A program made the translations under genes and the position numbers. From the sequence record NC_031103.1: a stretch of DNA of 64,000 nucleotides; one strand, 5' to 3'. Below the pieces are notes generated by a model, which did not search any database, was not told the origin of the DNA, and was given only the letters and a program-made list of their open reading frames with translations. The DNA is from Escherichia phage vB_EcoM-UFV13. This document shows, in pieces, positions 6,483-61,975 of this stretch (positions are counted from its first letter, which is position 1; every line of letters begins with the position of its first letter).

Positions 6483-8048
6483 ATGACTATCAAAACTAAA
6501 GCTGAACTTTTGAACAAATGGAAGCCATTACTGGAAGGTGAAGGTTTACCGGAAATTGCTAATAGCAAACAAGCGATTATCGCTAAAATCTTTGAAAACC
6601 AGGAAAAAGATTTCCAGACAGCTCCGGAATATAAAGACGAAAAAATTGCTCAGGCATTCGGTTCTTTCTTAACAGAAGCTGAAATCGGTGGTGACCACGG
6701 TTACAATGCTACCAACATCGCTGCAGGTCAGACTTCTGGCGCAGTAACTCAGATTGGCCCAGCTGTTATGGGTATGGTACGTCGTGCTATTCCTAACCTG
6801 ATTGCTTTCGATATTTGCGGTGTTCAGCCGATGAACAGCCCGACTGGCCAGGTATTCGCACTGCGCGCAGTATATGGTAAAGACCCAATCGCTTCCGGTG
6901 CTAAAGAAGCATTCCACCCAATGTATGGTCCAGATGCAATGTTCTCTGGTCAGGGTGCTGCTAAGAAATTCGCTGCTTTGGCTGCTAGCACACAAACTAC
7001 AGTAGGTGATATCTATACTCACTTCTTCCAGGACACTGGTACTGTGTATCTGCAAGCTTCTGTTCAAGTAACAATCGATGCTGGTGCGACTGATGCTGCT
7101 AAATTAGATGCTGAAATTAAGAAACAAATGGAAGCTGGTGCACTGGTAGAAATCGCTGAAGGTATGGCTACTTCTATCGCTGAACTCCAGGAAAGTTTCA
7201 ACGGTTCTACCGATAACCCATGGAATGAAATGGGCTTCCGTATCGATAAACAAGTTATCGAAGCTAAATCTCGCCAACTGAAAGCTGCTTACTCTATCGA
7301 ATTAGCACAAGACCTCCGTGCTGTTCACGGTATGGATGCTGATGCTGAACTGTCTGGTATTCTGGCTACAGAAATCATGCTGGAAATCAACCGTGAAGTT
7401 GTTGATTGGATTAACTACTCAGCTCAGGTTGGTAAATCTGGTATGACCCTGACTCCGGGTTCTAAAGCTGGTGTATTTGACTTCCAGGACCCAATCGATA
7501 TTCGTGGTGCTCGCTGGGCAGGTGAATCCTTTAAAGCTCTGTTGTTCCAGATTGACAAAGAAGCAGTTGAAATTGCTCGTCAGACCGGTCGTGGTGAAGG
7601 TAACTTCATTATCGCTTCCCGTAACGTAGTTAACGTTCTGGCTTCAGTTGATACCGGCATTTCTTATGCTGCACAAGGTCTGGCTACCGGCTTTAACACT
7701 GATACTACCAAGTCAGTATTTGCTGGTGTTCTGGGTGGTAAATACCGTGTATATATCGACCAGTATGCTAAACAGGATTATTTCACTGTAGGTTATAAAG
7801 GTCCGAACGAAATGGATGCTGGTATTTACTACGCTCCATATGTAGCTCTGACTCCGCTGCGTGGTTCCGATCCGAAGAACTTCCAACCAGTAATGGGATT
7901 CAAAACTCGTTACGGTATCGGTATCAACCCATTTGCAGAATCCGCTGCTCAGGCTCCGGCTTCTCGCATCCAGAGCGGTATGCCTTCTATTCTGAATAGC
8001 CTTGGTAAAAACGCTTACTTCCGCCGTGTATATGTTAAAGGTATCTAA
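6483..8048 (+). CDS. 23: Major capsid protein gp23
   Basis: 521 aa as in T4 gp23; strongly codon-biased, highly expressed-type sequence. Confidence 0.96.
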   Translation: MTIKTKAELLNKWKPLLEGEGLPEIANSKQAIIAKIFENQEKDFQTAPEYKDEKIAQAFGSFLTEAEIGGDHGYNATNIAAGQTSGAVTQIGPAVMGMVRRAIPNLIAFDICGVQPMNSPTGQVFALRAVYGKDPIASGAKEAFHPMYGPDAMFSGQGAAKKFAALAASTQTTVGDIYTHFFQDTGTVYLQASVQVTIDAGATDAAKLDAEIKKQMEAGALVEIAEGMATSIAELQESFNGSTDNPWNEMGFRIDKQVIEAKSRQLKAAYSIELAQDLRAVHGMDADAELSGILATEIMLEINREVVDWINYSAQVGKSGMTLTPGSKAGVFDFQDPIDIRGARWAGESFKALLFQIDKEAVEIARQTGRGEGNFIIASRNVVNVLASVDTGISYAAQGLATGFNTDTTKSVFAGVLGGKYRVYIDQYAKQDYFTVGYKGPNEMDAGIYYAPYVALTPLRGSDPKNFQPVMGFKTRYGIGINPFAESAAQAPASRIQSGMPSILNSLGKNAYFRRVYVKGI

Positions 8049-12899: not shown

Positions 12900-14411
12900 A
12901 TGACTGACATTAAAGTACATTTTTATGATTTTAGTCACGTGAGAATTGATTGTGAAGAAAGTACATTTCATGAACTCCGTGATTTCTTTAGCTTTGAAGC
13001 TGATGGGTATCGTTTTAATCCGAAGTACAGATATGGCCACTGGGATGGACGAATCCGTCTTTTAGATTATAATCGTCTTCTTCCATTCGGCTTAGTCGGG
13101 CAAATTAAAAAGTTCTGTGATAACTTTGGCTATAAAGCCTGGATTGACCCACAAATTAACGAAAAAGAAGAATTATCAAGAAAAGATTTTGATGAATGGC
13201 TTTCTAAATTAGAAATCTATTCAGGAAATAAAAGAATTGAACCACACTGGTATCAAAAAGATGCAGTGTTCGAAGGATTAGTTAATCGTCGTAGAATTCT
13301 TAATCTTCCAACATCCGCTGGTAAATCTTTAATTCAAGCTTTGCTTGCGCGATATTATTTGGAAAATTATGAAGGTAAAATTCTTATCATTGTTCCAACA
13401 ACTGCTCTGACAACTCAGATGGCTGATGACTTCGTTGACTATCGTTTATTCAGTCATGCAATGATAAAGAAAATTGGCGGCGGAGCATCAAAAGATGATA
13501 AATATAAAAATGATGCACCAGTCGTTGTTGGTACATGGCAAACTGTAGTTAAACAACCAAAAGAATGGTTCTCACAGTTTGGAATGATGATGAATGATGA
13601 ATGCCATCTTGCTACAGGAAAAAGTATTTCATCTATCATATCAGGTTTAAATAACTGTATGTTTAAATTTGGTCTATCAGGTTCATTACGTGATGGCAAA
13701 GCCAATATCATGCAGTATGTTGGAATGTTTGGTGAAATATTTAAGCCAGTAACGACTTCTAAATTAATGGAAGATGGGCAAGTAACTGAGCTAAAAATTA
13801 ATAGTATTTTTCTTCGCTATCCCGATGAGTTCACTACTAAATTAAAGGGGAAAACTTATCAAGAAGAAATAAAAATTATTACTGGGCTCAGTAAAAGAAA
13901 TAAATGGATCGCTAAATTAGCTATTAAGCTTGCGCAAAAAGATGAAAACGCTTTTGTCATGTTTAAACATGTATCACATGGTAAAGCTATTTTTGATTTA
14001 ATTAAAAATGAATACGATAAAGTTTATTACGTATCAGGGGAAGTTGATACCGAAACCCGCAATATAATGAAAACCTTAGCTGAAAACGGTAAAGGAATAA
14101 TTATAGTAGCTAGTTATGGTGTATTTTCTACTGGTATTTCAGTTAAAAATCTACATCACGTTGTTTTAGCGCACGGTGTTAAATCAAAAATCATTGTATT
14201 ACAAACAATCGGTCGTGTATTACGTAAGCACGGTTCTAAGACAATAGCAACAGTCTGGGACCTCATAGATGATTGTGGTGTTAAGCCAAAATCTGCTAAT
14301 ACGAAAAAGAAATATGTTCATTTGAACTATCTTTTAAAACACGGCATTGATCGTATTCAGCGCTACGCAGATGAAAAATTTAATTACGTAATGAAAACAG
14401 TTAATTTATAA
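12900..14411 (+). CDS. uvsW: UvsW DNA helicase (SF2, recombination/repair)
   Basis: 503 aa; Walker A LPTSAGKS; DECH box (MNDECH); helicase motif VI-like QTIGRVLRK. Confidence 0.92.
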   Translation: MTDIKVHFYDFSHVRIDCEESTFHELRDFFSFEADGYRFNPKYRYGHWDGRIRLLDYNRLLPFGLVGQIKKFCDNFGYKAWIDPQINEKEELSRKDFDEWLSKLEIYSGNKRIEPHWYQKDAVFEGLVNRRRILNLPTSAGKSLIQALLARYYLENYEGKILIIVPTTALTTQMADDFVDYRLFSHAMIKKIGGGASKDDKYKNDAPVVVGTWQTVVKQPKEWFSQFGMMMNDECHLATGKSISSIISGLNNCMFKFGLSGSLRDGKANIMQYVGMFGEIFKPVTTSKLMEDGQVTELKINSIFLRYPDEFTTKLKGKTYQEEIKIITGLSKRNKWIAKLAIKLAQKDENAFVMFKHVSHGKAIFDLIKNEYDKVYYVSGEVDTETRNIMKTLAENGKGIIIVASYGVFSTGISVKNLHHVVLAHGVKSKIIVLQTIGRVLRKHGSKTIATVWDLIDDCGVKPKSANTKKKYVHLNYLLKHGIDRIQRYADEKFNYVMKTVNL

Positions 14412-22965: not shown

Positions 22966-23256
22966 TTATTTACGGAATGAAATAAAAGCAGCAACTGAAG
23001 CAACTAAACTGTCTTCAATATAAACTTCAATTTTTACCGGAGCTTCTGACTCAAATTTACCTGTTACTACACCTTGAAAAATACTTTCAGTCTGTTCTGG
23101 CTTTGAAAAATTTTCAGAAGGAAAAATTCCGAACTTTTTATCCGTTCCAAAAATTTTGATAAATTCATCGTAAACTGCTTCATTAAAAGCATTATCAGCA
23201 GGAATAACGCCTTCAACTACAAGTTCTTGACCTAAAAAGCGCAAAGAAGATTTCAT
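22966..23256 (-). CDS. Hypothetical protein, 96 aa
   Basis: ATG start with GAGGA SD 7 nt upstream; own early-type promoter; no recognisable domain. Confidence 0.55.
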   Translation of the reverse strand: MKSSLRFLGQELVVEGVIPADNAFNEAVYDEFIKIFGTDKKFGIFPSENFSKPEQTESIFQGVVTGKFESEAPVKIEVYIEDSLVASVAAFISFRK

Positions 23257-23287
23257 TTTGTGTTCCTCATGTTATGTCAGTAAGACT

Positions 23288-23317
23288 ACTATAACACAAC
23301 ATAAGGAACTTGTAAAC
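23288..23317 (-). promoter_or_regulatory. T4 early-type promoter (GTTTACA - 17 nt - TATAGT) inside a conserved leader element, copy 1
   Basis: Minus strand GTTTACA overlapping the alt-paralogue stop, 17-nt spacer, TGTTATAGT; about 90% identical to the element at 38261-38316. Confidence 0.55.
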
Positions 23318-25374
23318 TACATTTTGAACTTTTTAGACATTCCGTTGATGTTAACCAAAGAAGCTAAGATTTGAGAAACTTCGTTTTCCTCTTCTTTTGA
23401 TTCTTCTACAAGGAATTGATTAAATCCAGTCATTGGACGAACTTCACCAGTTTCCATCAGATGGTCGCCATCATATACTGATTCTTCTAATTGTTCAGAA
23501 GGAGGAACGATTGTACCTTCGATTAGATACTTGTTATAAGCAGTTTCTTTCATAAAGTAAGTACTTACTTTATTAATCTTCAGTAAAATTCCACGCGGTA
23601 GAATAACTTCAGCTTCTGATGGAAATCCTGATAAATGACCTGGAACGATAACTTTGATTCGCTCAGCTCCTTTAATTACCATACCCACGCTAGTTTCAGC
23701 ATCTTCATTAGCATATGTAGAATGACTACCCATATGCATTAAATCTTCGGCATCAACGGAACCTTCTCCTTCACCAGAAAATACTGCGCCGGAATCATCT
23801 AGAGCCATATAGTTTTTACCATGCTCACCGAAGATATTTGGTTTAAGCGATGTGGATACGAAGTTCTTGAAATAGAACATTTTATTTTCAATGTTATGAC
23901 GCAAAGTTTTAAAGGTAACTTCTTGTCCACGGTAAAGTGTAGTTCCTGGAGGAAGAACTGATCCTTTGGCAAAGGCAGAATCCAACGTCTCGATGTGCTT
24001 AATAGCTCGTTCCATGTATTCTTCACGGGTAGAATCTGGTTTACCCAAAAGGAACGAGTTCATTTCAACATATGAATCTGCACAATAATCTTCAATTACA
24101 TCAGATTCAGCTTGGGTTAGTCCTTTTGGAGTTACTTCGGTGCTTGCGTATTCATATGCCTGAGCAGCAGATTCATTAATCAATTTATAAATGCCATTCA
24201 TTACAAATTGAATAATAGCTGTCTTTTCATCTGGTGTAGCTTTAGAACCTTTAACTAAATCATTGATAATTTTCTTAATAACATCAAAGCTATTAGAAAT
24301 ATTAATGTCAGCAAGATCACTTAAAATTTTATCAGTTTTATAATCAAAGAATTCTTTATTCTTTAAATATTCTTGAGAACCTTGATATGTTATATCGCTC
24401 TGCAGCTTGATAGATGGATCGCGTAAACGTGCATGGGCCAATGCAATATGATTTCGGAAGCTTTCTAGTTCATAATCGTTAGATTTAAAACGAGAAGCAC
24501 TTCTCATACCACCGATAGCTCCTTTGCTGAAGTTTGAACCAATCTGAATAACGCCAGAGTTCATTGGTCCTTCTGCTTTATATACCGGAACCTTAGATTC
24601 AAACTCTTGATATTTCTTAGCAGCGAAGCTATCACCCTGAAGTGAAGCGTCAACAGTAGAATATTGAGCTTGTGCTGCTAATCGACGACTAATTTTAGTT
24701 TTCTGAATAACAGCTTGGTCAGTACGTTTATCATTTTCTAAAGCAATAGAAGCAGCAACAGCGACAGCTTTAGGAACAGCATTACCTGTTTTAACGTCTA
24801 CATAAACATCACCAACCTTTGATTCAACTTTTGTGAATAACTCAGTTGAAATAGGAGGTACACCTGGAATGTCTTCTAAATTGGCATTTTTACGGTAAAC
24901 CATAATATATGCATATTTCTTATCATAGTCCCAGATTTCCTTTAAGAGAACATATCGACCTGCTCCTTTAGTACGTACTAAACGGTCAGCAATAACTTGC
25001 ATTTGACGAGCAGCGCCATTTGTTTTACTTTTTAGTACGCGGAATAGGCATGCATCAATTTTATACTGCTTCATTGTTTGAAGAGCAGTATCAAAAACAG
25101 CATTAATGACACCAATTGGATTTCCACCCAAGTTTCTAAGCTTAACCAGCGATAATTTCTCGTTGACACCTATCATTACGATATGCATCATTTTATCGCC
25201 TGGCTTAACGTTTTTATTTGTATCACCGCCAGAGGTGTATGTACAAAATCTAAATCCAGGAAGCACACTTTCTTCACCGGCTTGAATAGCAAAAATTTGA
25301 GGTATTTTATGCTTAGGATTTAAGTTAACAACCGGCGCCGAAGCGCCGTCAAATAATTCTGTAATAAGTTCCAT
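23317..25374 (-). CDS. Alt-family ADP-ribosyltransferase paralogue (head-packaged Alt-like protein)
   Basis: 685 aa; N-terminal about 230 aa and C-terminal ART region align with the adjacent Alt; central region diverged. Confidence 0.85.
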   Translation of the reverse strand: MELITELFDGASAPVVNLNPKHKIPQIFAIQAGEESVLPGFRFCTYTSGGDTNKNVKPGDKMMHIVMIGVNEKLSLVKLRNLGGNPIGVINAVFDTALQTMKQYKIDACLFRVLKSKTNGAARQMQVIADRLVRTKGAGRYVLLKEIWDYDKKYAYIMVYRKNANLEDIPGVPPISTELFTKVESKVGDVYVDVKTGNAVPKAVAVAASIALENDKRTDQAVIQKTKISRRLAAQAQYSTVDASLQGDSFAAKKYQEFESKVPVYKAEGPMNSGVIQIGSNFSKGAIGGMRSASRFKSNDYELESFRNHIALAHARLRDPSIKLQSDITYQGSQEYLKNKEFFDYKTDKILSDLADINISNSFDVIKKIINDLVKGSKATPDEKTAIIQFVMNGIYKLINESAAQAYEYASTEVTPKGLTQAESDVIEDYCADSYVEMNSFLLGKPDSTREEYMERAIKHIETLDSAFAKGSVLPPGTTLYRGQEVTFKTLRHNIENKMFYFKNFVSTSLKPNIFGEHGKNYMALDDSGAVFSGEGEGSVDAEDLMHMGSHSTYANEDAETSVGMVIKGAERIKVIVPGHLSGFPSEAEVILPRGILLKINKVSTYFMKETAYNKYLIEGTIVPPSEQLEESVYDGDHLMETGEVRPMTGFNQFLVEESKEEENEVSQILASLVNINGMSKKFKM

Positions 25375-31639: not shown

Positions 31640-31664
31640 TTTATTCTCCAAGATGTTTAATTGT

Positions 31665-31704
31665 GGTACAGGTGTATAATATCATATCCTGTACCAAAGT
31701 AAAC
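31665..31704 (-). promoter_or_regulatory. Early-type promoter (GTTTAC - 16 nt - TGATATTAT) with the -10 inside a hairpin loop
   Basis: GTAAAC at 31699-31704 (+), -10 at 31676-31681; inverted repeat GGTACAGG/CCTGTACC at 31665-31672 and 31688-31695. Confidence 0.55.
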
Positions 31705-31706
31705 AA

Positions 31707-32039: not shown

Positions 32040-32066
32040 TTTATTCTCCTTTGTTTGTGTAAGATA

Positions 32067-32096
32067 ATACTATCACAAAGGAACCATACTGTAAAC
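32067..32096 (-). promoter_or_regulatory. Early-type promoter (GTTTACA - 17 nt - TAGTAT)
   Basis: GTAAAC at 32091-32096 (+), TGTGATAGTAT -10 region. Confidence 0.5.
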
Positions 32097-32125
32097 AACT
32101 TTATGCAATCTTTGGAAAATAAAAA

Positions 32126-32145
32126 AGGACTCCCGAAGGAGTCCT
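32126..32145 (-). terminator. Intrinsic terminator (AGGACTC-CCGAAG-GAGTCCT then U-run) after the small basic ORF
   Basis: Perfect 7-bp stem, followed on the minus strand by TTTTTTATTTTCC. Confidence 0.7.
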
Positions 32146-32149
32146 CAAC

Positions 32150-34952: not shown

Positions 34953-34991
34953 GGTAGAGCTATAATATCACAACTCTACCGTAAAGTAAAC
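34953..34991 (-). promoter_or_regulatory. Early-type promoter (GTTTAC - 17 nt - TGTGATATTAT) with the -10 inside a hairpin loop
   Basis: GTAAAC at 34986-34991 (+), -10 at 34962-34967; inverted repeat GGTAGAG/CTCTACC at 34953-34959 and 34974-34980. Confidence 0.55.
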
Positions 34992-37760: not shown

Positions 37761-38254
37761 AAAGTTTTAATAACCTCTATAATATCGTCTTGAGAAAGAC
37801 CGTTAATTAAAATATGATGTTCAGCAGGAGATTTAGAAATTTTAAAGCATGCCTCAACATCTTCTGCCATATCTGATGCGCTACGATTTGGATTACTAAT
37901 TCCAAGACGATGTTTTCCCGTCAAAGGATTAACGATGATATAGCATTTACAGTTGTTAATATGAACATTAGGTTGAGTCTGATTAATGAACACATCACAA
38001 TCATATTTCGCAAGCTGATTTTCTAAAAAGACTTTCATCTCCTCAACTGCATCAGGAAGCATATCACGGGCTTGCTCAAGACGACGATTTCGATATTCTT
38101 TAATGGTCGTTTTCCGCTTGACTTGCTTAGCTAAATCTTTCTTAAGATCGGTGATATATCCAACTCGACGATTTCCTTTAAATACAGAAATCCCATCTGT
38201 AGTATCACCGTATGCTTCAACGACCATTTCAGTAGTAATAAGCTGTAAATCCAT
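37751..38254 (-). CDS. alc: Alc (host transcription shut-off)
   Basis: 167 aa from the second ATG, as in T4 Alc; position between spanins and rnlA. Confidence 0.8.
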   Translation of the reverse strand: MDLQLITTEMVVEAYGDTTDGISVFKGNRRVGYITDLKKDLAKQVKRKTTIKEYRNRRLEQARDMLPDAVEEMKVFLENQLAKYDCDVFINQTQPNVHINNCKCYIIVNPLTGKHRLGISNPNRSASDMAEDVEACFKISKSPAEHHILINGLSQDDIIEVIKTLCN

Positions 38255-38260
38255 CATAAA

Positions 38261-38316
38261 GTCCTCATGTTATGTCAGTAAGACTACTGTAACACAACAC
38301 GAGGGACTTGTAAACA
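38261..38316 (-). promoter_or_regulatory. Early-type promoter (GTTTACA - 17 nt - TACAGT) plus conserved leader, copy 2, upstream of alc
   Basis: About 90% identical to 23262-23316; GTAAAC at 38310-38315 (+); the leader carries the GAGGA SD. Confidence 0.55.
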
Positions 38317-38318
38317 GC

Positions 38319-39906
<1,588 letters not shown>

Positions 39907-46329: not shown

Positions 46330-46347
46330 TTTATTCTCCTTAGTTGA

Positions 46348-46384
46348 TAGGGTAATAGTATCACACTACTACCCTACTGTAAAC
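46348..46384 (-). promoter_or_regulatory. Early-type promoter (GTTTACA - 17 nt - TGTGATACTAT) with the -10 inside a hairpin loop
   Basis: GTAAAC at 46379-46384 (+), -10 at 46355-46360; inverted repeat TAGGGTA/TACCCTA at 46348-46354 and 46370-46376. Confidence 0.55.
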
Positions 46385-47124: not shown

Positions 47125-47143
47125 GGGGACCCTAGAGGTCCCC
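47125..47143 (-). terminator. Intrinsic terminator downstream of gene 32 (GGGGACC-CTAGA-GGTCCCC then U-run)
   Basis: 7-bp perfect stem followed on the minus strand by TTTTTTATTTCAAAAATTTTT. Confidence 0.8.
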
Positions 47144-50335: not shown

Positions 50336-50364
50336 ATGAACCTCGTTCAATTAGTGAGATTTCT

Positions 50365-50394
50365 ATTATATACTATCCAAATCTTAAAGTAAAC
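50365..50394 (-). promoter_or_regulatory. Early-type promoter for rnh (GTTTAC - 17 nt - TATAAT)
   Basis: GTAAAC at 50389-50394 (+), TATAAT revcomp at 50365-50370. Confidence 0.5.
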
Positions 50395-56166: not shown

Positions 56167-59100
56167 ATGGCTACTTTAAAACAGATACAATTTAAAAGAA
56201 GCAAAACCGCAGGTGCACGTCCTGCTGCTTCAGTATTAGCCGAAGGTGAATTGGCTATAAACTTAAAAGATAGAACAATTTTTACTAAAGATGATTCGGG
56301 AAATATCATTGATCTAGGTATTGCTAAAGGCGGTCAAATTGATGGAAATGTGACTATCAATGGTCTTTTAAGATTAAATGGGGATTATACACAAACTGGT
56401 GGAATGACCGTAAATGGACCTATTGGTTCTACTGAAGGCGTATCCGCCTTAGTTTTTAGATCTATGCGAGGGTCATTTTACGCAAGAGCAACAAATGATA
56501 CTTCCAATGCCCATCTTTGGTTTGAAAATACAAATGGATCAGAGAGAGGTGTTTTATATTCAAAACCGCAGTCTGAAAATGAAGGCGTAATTACAATGCG
56601 CGTTCGTCAAGGAACCGCAGCAGGGGCTCAAAATTCAGAATTTCATTTCATTTCTACTGATGGCGGTATCTTCCAGGCACGCAAATTAACTGCTTTAACT
56701 TCTATTAGTACACCAACTATTAGTGTTAATTTAATTAATCACGATTCTAAAGCCTTTGGACAATATGATTCACAGTCATTAGTTCAGTATGTTTATCCTG
56801 GAACAGGTGAAACAAATGGCGTAAACTATCTTCGTAAAGTTCGTGCTAAATCAGGTGGTACAATTTATCATGAAATTTGTACAGCTCAGACTGGGCTGGC
56901 AGATGAAATGTCATGGTGGACTGGTAATACACCGTTATTTAAACTATACGGTATTCGTAACGACGGTAGAATGATTATCCGCAATAGCTTGGCCATTGGT
57001 ACTGTGACTGAAGGATACCCGTCAAGCGATTATGGAAATACCGGGGTAATGGGAGATAGGTATTTAGCTCTTGGCGATAATGCTTCTGGACTTAAATGGG
57101 TTCGTACTGGCGTTATTGACTTAATGGCTAACGGTATTTCTGCGGCGACTATTATTAATAATGGTATTAATAGTACTAAAAAATTGATGGTCGGTTATAG
57201 CCGCGATTCTGGTACTACATGGGATTTTCCAAATAACAACCAAGCAATGTTTACTGCGCGTACCGATATTGATGGTAATAATAACGGTGATGGGCAAACT
57301 CATATCGGTTATAACAGTAATTCTAAAATGTATCACTATTTCCGTGGTACAGGTCGTATGGCTGTTGGTATGTCCCAAGGTCTCCTTGTTGAACCAGGAA
57401 TTTTAGATATTAACACTGGTTCTAACAGAGTTGCTATTAGAGCAGATGGTACATTTGACTCAACCCAACGTATTTCTATGCGTACGGGCTTGTTTTTAAG
57501 CGGTGATGATAATACTAATGCTTTATTGTTTAAAGCGCCTTCCGGCGTAGATGGTACTAAACCCATTAGCTGGGCCGCAGGTACTCGTAACGGTCAGAAT
57601 AAAAATGACATTTCAATTAAAGTATGGGGTAATGCCTTTAACTCAGTTCCGGGTATTAGAGAAACTGTATTTGAAGTATATGATTCACAAGGTTATTATT
57701 TTTATTCACAACGCCAGCGCCCAGAAGGTTCTGAAACTGTTGGGCCTGTTGTAACTCAGTTCAGTGGTCAAGTTAATGCTAACGGCTCTATTAGCACTGC
57801 AGGAAATCTTAAAGTTGATGGTTTGAGTACTTTAAACGGTAATGTTACAATGAAGAACGGTTTGTTTGTTCAAGGTGGTTCTTCTATTACTGGACAAGTT
57901 AAAATCGGCGGAACAGCTGACGCATTAAGAATTTGGAATGCTGAATATGGTGCTATTTTCCGCCGTTCGGAAAGTAATCTTTATATTATCCCGACTCCTA
58001 AAGGTGCCGGAGAATCGGGCGGTATAAGTAATCTTAGACCATTGATAATAGAACTGAACACTGGTACAGTTAAAATGTCGCATGATGTTCATTTAGGAGA
58101 TTCTGGATCTGGTACAGGATTATTACAAGTAAGTAATAGTCTTAAAACTATTAAAATGATATGTCCAGTAACTATTAATGAACGCAATGCAGCGCTTACT
58201 TTAGATTCTCCTTCATCTTCTTCTGCTAATTATTTACAGGGTTCTAAAGCTGGAACTAGATCATGGTATGTTGGTCTTGGTGGCGCTGGAAATGATTTAT
58301 CGCTTTATAGCCAATCTTATGGACATGGTCTTGTTATAAGCGATAATTTCGTGTCAATCAGTAAACCTCTTAAAGTCGGAAATGCCCAATTAGGAACTGA
58401 CGGTAATATTACCAATGGTTCAGGAAACTTTGCCAACTTAAACACCACGTTAAATCGTAAAGTTAATTCTGGATTTATTACTTATGGAGCAACTGCTGGC
58501 TGGTATAAGTTTGCAACAGTAACAATGCCACAATCCACTTCTACGGTCTTCTTTAAAATAGCCGGTGGTTCTGGATTTAATAGCGGATTATTCACACAAT
58601 GCAATATTGCTGAAATTGTTTTACGTACTAGTAATGAAAGACCTGCTGACTTAAATGCTGTATTATATACAAGAACATCTGGACTGTATAGCGCAGCATT
58701 TAGAAATATTGCAGTTAACAATGTCTCTGGAAATACATATGACATTTATGTTTATGCCGGAACATATTGTAATCAACTAGCGTGTGAATGGTCATGTACC
58801 GAAAATGCTACTGTTAGCGTTATTGGTATTAACTCATCTACACAATCACCTGTAGATGCTCTTCCAGATACAGCAGTTAACGGTCAAGTTGCTAATGTTC
58901 TTAATAACTTGGTTGATCGTGGTAAAGCAAAACGTTATGTAGCAGAGTCGGAAATTGCTATTAATAACCAAACTGGTATTCGTATTACGAGTAATTCTGA
59001 TAGATCAGGTTCTAATTCCGTTTTATTTCGAAATGACGGTGGAAACTTCTATATTTTACTGACCGACAAAAACTCTTCGGACGGCGATAATAAAGCGACT

Positions 59101-61822: not shown

Positions 61823-61975
61823 TCAATTAGTTGACTTTATTATAATATCATCAGACGCTTGATTTGTAAACTGGTCTGTGTTATTTTCTTCAAAAATTTT
61901 TTCTACGAATTCCTTGAACGACTTACGTTCCTGAGCTACATTATGCTCGATTACTTTTTCAAGATTATGACTCAT
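61823..61975 (-). CDS. Small 50-aa ORF between arn and asiA, absent from the ORF track
   Basis: ATG overlaps the arn stop (ATGA); translation MSHNLEKVIEHNVAQERKSFKEFVEKIFEENNTDQFTNQASDDIIIKSTN; the asiA promoter lies within its 3' end. Confidence 0.35.
   Translation of the reverse strand: MSHNLEKVIEHNVAQERKSFKEFVEKIFEENNTDQFTNQASDDIIIKSTN
61842..61871 (-). promoter_or_regulatory. Early-type promoter for asiA (GTTTACA - 17 nt - TGATATTAT)
   Basis: GTAAAC revcomp at 61865-61871 (+), -10 at 61842-61847, about 30 nt upstream of the asiA ATG. Confidence 0.55.

Follow-up and report, generated by a model that had tools for sequence, protein, structure and literature searches.

Hairpin-Embedded Early Promoters in a T4-Like Coliphage and Their Probable Folding in Read-Through RNA

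Three Early Promoters in Short Gaps between Early Genes

The window (the whole stretch of 64,000 nucleotides analysed here, from Escherichia phage vB_EcoM-UFV13, NC_031103.1) belongs to a Tequatrovirus and is 95-98% identical to many T4-like coliphages, and its early genes lie on the minus strand. Alignment to T4 (AF158101), together with tblastn searches, placed three early promoters in the gaps between 30.8 and 30.7 (L1), cd.3 and cd.2 (L2), and frd.2 and frd.1 (L3); L2 is the early promoter Pe133295 of the T4 annotation. An earlier note had singled out these loci, with coordinates that proved exact once the promoters are read on the minus strand. All three have the spacing GTTTAC-N17/18-TAnnnT and a common layout, in which GTTTAC is followed by 2-5 nt, a 5' arm, 14-15 nt containing TGn and the -10 element, and a complementary 3' arm (table 1). 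The arms are perfect reverse complements of 7-9 bp. The stem of L1, of 9 bp (TGGTACAGG/CCTGTACCA), extends through small internal loops as far as a pairing of the -35 region. The stems had been described as different in sequence yet perfectly complementary, and the loop as the same at the three loci. The complementarity stands, but the stems are not wholly different, as all of them share GGTA/TACC, and the loop of L1 reads TATGATATTAT and not TGTGATATTAT.

Within 65-70 bp, each locus holds the upstream stop codon, an A/T-rich stretch, GTTTAC, TGn, TAnnnT, an SD and the ATG, and 2-8 nt separate the upstream stop codon from the hairpin's start. In this arrangement, which we call tight, the 3' arm covers approximately positions -6 to +5 and the SD is left free, 10-17 nt downstream of the main stem. 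Masking of the RBS by the main stems was not found at any of the three loci; at L2, a weak extra helix touches the SD. The SD of L1 and L3 contains GGAG. A search for Rfam families gave no match at any position of the window.

Two readings of the individual palindromes were considered and rejected. The first was a divergent promoter on the plus strand: at L1, the loop sequence TGTATAAT is preceded by GTTTAA, but at a spacing of 14 nt (16 nt to TAATAT), and neither L2 nor L3 offers a -35 partner. The second was a "flip-flop" promoter, switched by inversion of the loop. The T4 record carries a misc_feature at 133300-133313 ("inverted complement of previously reported sequence") that corresponds exactly to the L2 loop, and in the old partial T4 entry X03007 the loop is flipped, giving GTTTAC-N13-TATAAT, a dead promoter. 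When 50,697 phage records were queried with the L2 and L1 sequences with inverted loops, only X03007 was found to carry the inverted L2 loop, and none of the genome records covering the whole query matched the inverted loop better than expected for the native orientation. We accordingly regard the inversion as an old sequencing or cloning artefact, caused by the palindrome, rather than as a natural switch.

Table 1. Positions of the hairpin-embedded early promoters and intrinsic terminators discussed in the text
Feature	Position	Strand	Parts and remarks
L1, early promoter (31704) and hairpin, 30.8/30.7 gap	31654..31705	-	GTTTAC 31704-31699, TTT, GGTACAGG 31695-31688, ATATGATATTATACA, CCTGTACC 31672-31665; -10 TATTAT 31681-31676; outer helix TGTTTA with TAAACA
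L2, early promoter (34991) and hairpin, cd.3/cd.2 gap	34953..34991	-	GTTTAC 34991-34986, TTTAC, GGTAGAG 34980-34974, TTGTGATATTATAG, CTCTACC 34959-34953; -10 TATTAT 34967-34962
L3, early promoter (46384) and hairpin, frd.2/frd.1 gap	46347..46384	-	GTTTAC 46384-46379, AG, TAGGGTA 46376-46370, GTAGTGTGATACTAT, TACCCTA 46354-46348; -10 TACTAT 46360-46355
Sibling, promoter 32096 upstream of 30.8	32047..32082	-	8-bp stem TCCTTTGT/ACAAAGGA encloses -10; 3' arm is the SD
Sibling, promoter 23317 upstream of alt.-3 homologue	23262..23309	-	hairpin of ~21 bp; SD (GAGGAA) in 3' arm
Sibling, promoter 38315 upstream of alc	38259..38309	-	long hairpin over SD
Weak sibling (doubtful), promoter 50394	50357..50384	-	6-bp stem AGATTT/AAATCT around TATAAT
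Intrinsic terminator just upstream of promoter 32096	32125..32146	-	GC-rich stem, UUCG loop, U-run
Intrinsic terminator	47125..47143	-	downstream of gene 32, just upstream of early promoter 47094

A Genome-Wide Class of Hairpin-Embedded Promoters

We scanned the window and the whole T4 genome for every GTTTAC-N16-19-TAnnnT site and took as stem measure the longest perfect Watson-Crick stem having one arm before and the other after the -10 element. For the null distribution, the 5' half of each promoter was joined to the 3' half of every other promoter, a procedure that preserves the consensus positions and the base composition (5000 permutations). Perfect stems of at least 7 bp enclose the -10 element in 4 of the 10 promoters of the window, against 0.11 expected, and in 12 of the 42 minus-strand sites of T4, against 0.66 expected; no permutation matched the observed count, either for the window or for T4 (0/5000 each). 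Flanking inverted repeats are thus in excess far over chance in both sets; a genome-wide scan for them had been proposed in the earlier note as a check. The number of hairpin promoters in T4 is 12-19, depending on whether the stem threshold is set at 7 or 6 bp, and there are at least six in the window. Among the T4 stems are those at 73939 (10 bp) and 65799 (14 bp), both at internal-protein loci, and those at 57990 (13 bp) and 20612 (9 bp).

The family, initially thought to consist of three loci, is therefore larger, and in the window the promoters at 32096, 23317 and 38315, and weakly that at 50394, are also embedded in hairpins. The first three represent a wide variant, in which the 3' arm is the SD itself and which is also found in T4 at 65413, 62797 and 53943. 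The 23317 hairpin reaches -25.7 kcal/mol (z -5.1), with -24.2 for the sense against -14.5 for the antisense strand, and the corresponding strand values at 38315 are -25.1 and -16.8 kcal/mol. The 38315 cassette is a paralogue of the 23317 cassette, with 61 of 81 bases identical at a distance of 15 kb. The membership of 50394 is doubtful; its fold is no better than those of shuffled sequences (z +0.4). Several early promoters located right after an ORF, such as that at 61871, are without a hairpin, which indicates that the hairpin is not obligatory. L1-L3 are part of a genome-wide class of hairpin-embedded early promoters.

Conservation and Compensatory Changes among Orthologues

Syntenic regions were compared in Tequatrovirus BCH953P4, Mosigvirus (mogra, TH58), Dhakavirus CLBP2, LQ5, Gaprivervirus (PSD2001, TH55), Karamvirus fGh-Ecl04, Moonvirus Moon, Klebsiella phage K65_evo10 and Gelderlandvirus STML-198. 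These come from GenBank phage records, which were used in place of IMG/VR, where searches with the downstream proteins returned five near-identical loci each.

The three loci have different histories. No change is seen in the stem of L1 (TTGGTACAGG/CCTGTACCAA) across Tequatro-, Mosig-, Dhaka- and Gaprivervirus, while around it the downstream leader diverges and the upstream protein 30.8 is only ~37% identical. In Karam- and Moonvirus, an 11-bp hairpin of unrelated sequence (CUCCGUUGUAU/AUACAACGGAG) occupies the same gap, with the promoter inside it and the SD covered. L2 was found, among the lineages compared, only in Tequatro- and Mosigvirus; an A-to-G change in Mosigvirus (GGTgGAG) yields a G·U pair, and BCH953P4 has an A·C at the end of the stem, an example of the stem erosion seen in some genomes. 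The helix of L3 is kept in nine lineages (Tequatro-, Mosig-, Dhaka-, Gapriver-, Karam-, Moon- and Gelderlandvirus, LQ5 and the Klebsiella phage) with arm pairs that differ by lineage: TAGGGTA/TACCCTA, TAAGGCTATGGTA/TACTATAGCCTTA, GATAGGGCTAT/ATAGCCCTATC, ATGGGGCTAT/ATGGCCCCAT, TGGAGCTATGCT/AGTATAGCTCCA and GGGTTATGGT/ACTATAACCC.

RNAalifold detected no covarying pairs in an ungapped alignment of L3, a result explained by the 5' arm lying in different registers, from one genus to another, within a spacer fixed at 18 nt. Column-wise covariation was replaced by a pair table anchored on the -10 element and by a test of chimera energies. The pair table reveals pair-preserving two-sided changes at six positions; all one-sided changes within the helix are G·T, and A·C is confined to the frayed ends. 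The L3 orthologues fold at a mean of -17.5 kcal/mol from their own halves, against -10.7 kcal/mol for chimeras of different orthologues.

The co-variation cited in the earlier note had been read among three non-orthologous promoters that share GGTA/TACC, and hence is not evolutionary covariation. Between related genomes, the co-variation of the arms holds for L3, with its six compensatory positions, but not for L1, where the stem is conserved without covarying. The underlying proposal, that structure rather than sequence is selected, is supported by the permutation test and by the compensatory changes among L3 orthologues, and we conclude that the hairpin structure is under selection.

Folding as Sense RNA or as DNA

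As sense RNA, the three elements fold at -14.1 (L1, z -4.2), -16.3 (L2, z -6.5) and -17.8 kcal/mol (L3, z -4.5). The antisense strands of L2 and L3 reach -9.1 and -11.9 kcal/mol, and L1 is an exception in that its antisense strand folds slightly better than the sense strand (-15.3 kcal/mol). The helix is 12 bp long in L2 RNA, closed by an AUAU loop, and 14 bp long in L3 RNA, where it extends over 46377-46347 and is closed by a UGA loop. The -10 element had been thought to sit in an open loop; as RNA, this "loop" is mostly paired via G·U, and the -10 hexamer makes up the 3' strand of the upper stem. By standard sigma-70 geometry, the start site would be expected ~7 nt past the -10 element, that is, inside or before the 3' arm, so that the promoter's own transcript could not form the hairpin. 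Formation of the hairpin would then be limited to RNA arriving from upstream, or to single-stranded DNA.

In a cruciform both strands have to fold, whereas a structure formed by one strand can accommodate G·U, though only on that strand; single-stranded DNA of the same sense accepts G·T pairs as well. Across 52 unique hairpin promoters in 11 genomes, the isolated mismatches lying within helices are 14 G·T against 2 A·C (G·T share in register-shifted decoys 0.51, p = 0.003), counts that include orthologous sites and correspond to approximately 6-7 G·T against 1 A·C in independent families, a small effective sample. In 42 of the 50 unique hairpins in which the two differ, the sense RNA folds more stably than the antisense; on average, sense minus antisense amounts to -2.0 kcal/mol for hairpin promoters, against +0.2 kcal/mol for hairpin-less promoters. 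Folded as DNA, L1-L3 give hairpins of only -4.9 to -8.4 kcal/mol with loops of 12-15 nt, and the stability of both strands combined with a short loop that would characterize a DNA-hairpin or cruciform promoter was not found at these loci. The G·T bias, the predominance of the sense strand and the weak DNA folds therefore speak for the first of the two roles offered in the earlier note, a hairpin in upstream read-through RNA, rather than for the second, a DNA cruciform, and selection most likely acts on the structure formed by the sense read-through RNA.

The alternative that survives best is nevertheless one in which the repeats act in DNA, as a cruciform or single-strand hairpin that is either a hotspot of recombination or template switching, shuffling the cassettes, or a modulator of promoter opening. 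Gene traffic around the cassettes is in agreement with such a role: in BCH953P4, an inserted ORF of 175 aa separates the L2 promoter and its SD from cd.2, and a different gene lies upstream of L3; in T4, an ORF of 22 aa is inserted behind the L3 promoter; and the near-identical promoter-hairpin cassettes at 23317 and 38315 stand far apart in the window. Furthermore, recombination at promoter-early stem-loops (PeSLs) and the formation of mini-circles have been shown experimentally in phi1/RB49 (PMC2839356). However, shuffling requires only the shared homology of the promoters and not complementary arms, and the stems vary between loci, so that they do not provide a single site to be shared by a recombinase. 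Extrusion of a cruciform is unlikely for such weak hairpins with large loops, and the need for both strands to fold is at odds with the excess of G·T over A·C and with the poorer folding of the antisense strand. We thus regard a role in DNA as rather improbable.

Relation to Intrinsic Terminators and Other Explanations

The location of the hairpins directly behind an upstream stop codon could also suggest that early transcription from upstream ends at them by true intrinsic termination, in composite terminator-promoters as PeSLs have been described, and a GC-rich PeSL stem-loop of phi1 indeed lowered lacZ read-through as strongly as rrnB T1 (PMC2839356). At L1-L3, in contrast, no U-run follows any of the stems (tails ACAAUUAA, AAACAAAU and UCAACUAA), which makes real termination unlikely. 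A terminator scan of the same 18 kb passes over the three hairpins and calls two canonical terminators, with GC-rich stems and U7-8, which lie just upstream of the early promoters 32096 and 47094 (table 1); the latter promoter has no hairpin around its -10 element. In T4, six early promoters have a canonical terminator just upstream, which argues that a separate structure is used where termination is needed. Judged from their sequence, the L1-L3 hairpins are not canonical terminators, and we consider it unlikely that they are true terminators of upstream transcription.

The distribution of the two kinds of structure in T4 may be mentioned here. The hairpin is present in one of the six terminator-preceded promoters against 18 of the 36 others, a weak trend only (p = 0.2), of a kind that fits insulation.

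It may also be asked whether the hairpins are a non-adaptive by-product of the dyad symmetry of the promoter consensus (TGTGATA/TATTATA), combined with template-switch mutagenesis of T4 quasi-palindromes. Template-switch mutation in such sequences of T4 is established, the upper stem is built of consensus promoter bases (TGTGA with TAYTAT), and TACCCTA is a recurrent motif downstream of T4 early promoters that also occurs without a matching 5' arm (T4 166807). Nevertheless, the permutation test, in which every consensus position is retained, still shows an 18-fold excess, and the consensus does not extend to the lower stems. Moreover, template switching predicts perfect Watson-Crick repeats and not a strand-specific excess of G·T, and the stems are conserved or compensated across genera while their flanks diverge. 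An origin as a mere by-product is thus very unlikely. Lastly, although a dyad symmetry centred on the -10 element, together with a mechanism of early-promoter shut-off in T4 that is not fully understood (PMC3014915), might evoke operators at which a dimeric DNA-binding regulator turns early promoters off, this explanation is highly improbable because arm sequence, spacing (loops of 8-27 nt) and position vary from promoter to promoter and are compensated between orthologues, so that one protein could not read all arms, and because many early promoters have no repeat.

A Possible Role in the Fate of Read-Through RNA

We therefore return to the sense RNA. The reading that we prefer, and hold to be probably correct, is that these elements are PeSL cassettes of a T-even type whose hairpin, formed in read-through RNA, insulates neighbouring early transcription units. 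Its direct basis is the anatomy of the loci, the enrichment over chance, the conservation and covariation of the arms and the asymmetry between the two strands. Each cassette consists of a very strong sigma-70 early promoter, comprising an UP element, GTTTAC, TGn and TAnnnT, which together with the SD and the start codon fills an intergenic gap of 60-70 bp. RNA polymerase would leave only two stretches of such a promoter free to vary, one being the spacer between -35 and -10 and the other the discriminator and the bases transcribed first, and these would have evolved to be complementary. As two complementary arms would fit only in the stretches flanking the -10 element, the latter would end up inside the hairpin. 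Such an account by geometry needs no role of the hairpin in promoter function.

RNA initiated upstream and reading through the gap would hold both arms, and the promoter sequence within it would fold into a hairpin of 12-21 bp behind the upstream stop codon, whereas a locally started transcript would begin inside the 3' arm and stay unfolded. In the read-through RNA, the hairpin would bury the AU-rich promoter sequence and might constitute a pause or attenuation point for the polymerase. After a cut in the leader, by RegB at GGAG or by RNase E, it could block 3' exonucleases and so guard the upstream message, which would give it an insulating or 3'-end-protecting role. RNA structure is known to shield GGAG from RegB. 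In the wide siblings, the 3' arm lies over the SD, and the downstream gene would be translated only from the transcript of its own promoter. A search of the literature found no term-seq or 3'-end data set for T4, and no experiment on L1-L3 or on other tight hairpins of T-even phages.

More tentatively, the cassettes may represent a general device of the early regions of Tevenvirinae, in which a hairpin of the sense RNA marks each transcript by its origin and gives RNA from upstream a fate unlike that of RNA started locally. If so, read-through RNA would receive a protected 3' end and its AU-rich promoter sequence would be shielded from RNase E, and the wide variants would in addition hide the SD and make GGAG resistant to RegB. 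The hairpins would then be a designed answer to the packing of dozens of very strong promoters inside operons.

The early regions of T4 contain ~40 very strong promoters with single small genes between them, and the greater part of early RNA thus runs on through the promoter that follows. If the hairpins decide the fate of this RNA, they would be part of what sets the relative expression of early genes, and also part of the reason why promoter-gene cassettes can be exchanged among phages with no disturbance of what lies beside them. In phage engineering, such promoters should be moved together with both arms, and in genome annotation the hairpins should not be labelled as terminators.

Comparison with Known Systems

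The earlier note expressed doubt as to whether the arrangement had been described, and it has in fact been published, in the form of PeSLs (PMC2839356; PMC4122927). These were defined in phi1/RB49 by Arbiol et al. 2010 (PMC2839356), who found the stem-loops most commonly between -35 and -10 or overlapping -10, and in whose assays lacZ read-through was cut by the stem-loop of PeSL211/210 to about the same degree as by rrnB T1. PeSLs were later recognized in PST/T4 and nt-1/KVP40 by Comeau et al. 2014 (PMC4122927), who gave for the PST/T4 promoters the consensus TTTACW-N17-TAYWAT. L1-L3 match this consensus and, like PeSLs, are intergenic cassettes of a kind repeated many times in the genome, in which AT-rich sequence precedes a strong early promoter with its stem-loop, SD and start codon, and which are adjoined by gene insertions and replacements; an early promoter in an intergenic gap, a stable stem-loop and repetition in the genome beside insertions or replacements, by which PeSLs are recognized, are all present at the three loci. 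They differ from the phi1/RB49 PeSLs, whose stems are G/C-rich (GGGG...CCCC) and whose promoters are of the TTGACA/TATAAT type. They also differ from the PST/T4 PeSLs, in which, by a published figure legend, the stem-loop immediately precedes the promoter (PMC4122927), whereas here it encloses the -10 element. That description fits the terminator and promoter pairs 32146/32096 and 47143/47094 and not L1-L3. The hairpins that enclose the -10 element are thus a sub-type different from the PST/T4 PeSLs as published.

Elements still closer to ours come from the T-even internal-protein loci. According to Arbiol et al. (PMC2839356), who refer to Repoila 1994, PeSL-like elements occur at these loci, and they consist of T4 early promoters with weaker, AT-rich stem-loops. 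The elements that our scan recovers at the internal-protein loci of T4 (73939, 65799, 65413 and 66498) have the same anatomy as L1-L3. The abstract of Repoila et al. 1994 (EMBO J 13:4181) reportedly describes units of ~70 bp made of a T4 early promoter and an overlapping inverted repeat. These elements reportedly concern only the two internal-protein loci and were read as substrates of recombination, whereas L1-L3 lie elsewhere, beside ordinary early genes.

With respect to function, a parallel is provided by the T4 genes e, soc, 49, I-TevI and segB, in which a hairpin of the read-through RNA masks the RBS and a promoter lies internally (PMC2988022). In both cases the long upstream transcripts fold while the local transcript does not, or at L1-L3 is expected not to, and 32096, 23317 and 38315 mask the SD likewise. 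However, the promoters of e, soc and I-TevI are late or middle promoters and the hairpins serve temporal control of translation, whereas L1-L3 leave the SD free. An inverted repeat inside the promoter is also a feature of an E. coli promoter that is said to be regulated by a cruciform (Horwitz and Loeb 1988) and of the hairpin promoters of the N4 virion RNA polymerase, a different polymerase, which have stems of 5-7 bp and loops of 3 nt. Both act as DNA extruded by supercoiling, whereas the hairpins described here are weak and large-looped as DNA, and it is the sense RNA to which the evidence points. The loci of 30.7, cd.2 and frd.1 may be absent from earlier lists, and the evidence on the RNA strand appears to be new. 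As the arrangement was already published, the value of our analysis as a discovery is limited, and what it adds to the literature is statistical proof of the association between early promoters and hairpins, covariation between orthologues, and evidence that the hairpins act as sense RNA.

Paralogous cassettes and insertions behind the promoters

The alt.-3 and alc promoter-hairpin-SD (Shine-Dalgarno) cassettes of the window are paralogous; they lie 15 kb apart, are identical at 61 of 81 bases and show a compensatory difference in their outer stems (GTTCC/GGAAC vs AAGTCC/GGACTT). In Gelderlandvirus STML-198, one promoter-hairpin (GGGTTATGGT/ACTATAACCC) is present twice on the minus strand, at 2245 and 2934, ~700 bp apart, and the two copies, which precede two different small genes, represent a local cassette duplication.

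Cassettes and terminators in the window
Feature	Coordinates	Strand	Structure	Position
Promoter-hairpin-SD cassette	23250-23330	minus		upstream of alt.-3 homologue
Promoter-hairpin-SD cassette	38248-38328	minus		upstream of alc homologue
Textbook intrinsic terminator	32125-32146	minus	GC-rich stem, short loop, U7-8	30-50 nt upstream of early promoter 32096
Textbook intrinsic terminator	47125-47143	minus	GC-rich stem, short loop, U7-8	30-50 nt upstream of early promoter 47094

Genes are also inserted behind the hairpin-embedded promoters L2 (cd.3/cd.2) and L3 (frd.2/frd.1). In Tequatrovirus BCH953P4, a close relative, cd.2 is separated from the L2 promoter with its hairpin and SD by an ORF of ~175 aa (MSEWFEEDKVYRF...; region 13278-13860); the junction is immediately 3' of the L2 SD, and the L2 promoter cassette therefore drives a different first gene. 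In T4 (AF158101), ~110 bp are inserted directly behind the promoter-hairpin, in the region ~146030-146100, and separate frd.1 from the L3-type promoter at 146143; the insertion brings its own SD and an unannotated hydrophobic 22-codon ORF (MFAPYIMAAVMLVCLYLLIKAC). This insertion is absent from the window (46330-46347), in which frd.1 comes straight after the L3 hairpin.

Loop orientation and structures at L1

The GenBank note to T4 positions 133300-133313 reads 'inverted complement of previously reported sequence; corrects early promoter Pe133295'. This 14-bp stretch is precisely the loop between the L2 arms (34960-34973 in the window), and it is flipped in the 1980s entry X03007 (150-185), resulting in a non-functional GTTTAC-N13-TATAAT. 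An inverted-loop search of 50,697 phage records returned no genome record that spanned the full query and matched it better than the native orientation predicts.

In the region 31655-31684, the loop of L1, the 30.8/30.7 promoter, reads TGTATAAT on the plus strand. This is a perfect extended -10, preceded by GTTTAA at a spacing of just 14 nt, or of 16 nt if measured to TAATAT. The locus may hold a weak promoter directed antisense into 30.8. Among L1-L3, L1 is the sole locus whose antisense RNA folds slightly better than the sense RNA.

Upstream of the 30.7 homologue, the GGTACAGG stem is absent from Karamvirus (fGh-Ecl04, ~6860-6920) and Moonvirus (Moon, ~6845-6902), where an 11-bp hairpin, CUCCGUUGUAU...AUACAACGGAG, surrounds the whole promoter and has the SD paired: the position matches that of the L1 stem, but the structure differs.

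Comparison with published cassettes

The terminator and early promoter pairs of the window (47094 and 32096) correspond to the 'terminator then promoter' form of the promoter-early stem-loop (PeSL), as described for PST/T4 (PMC4122927).
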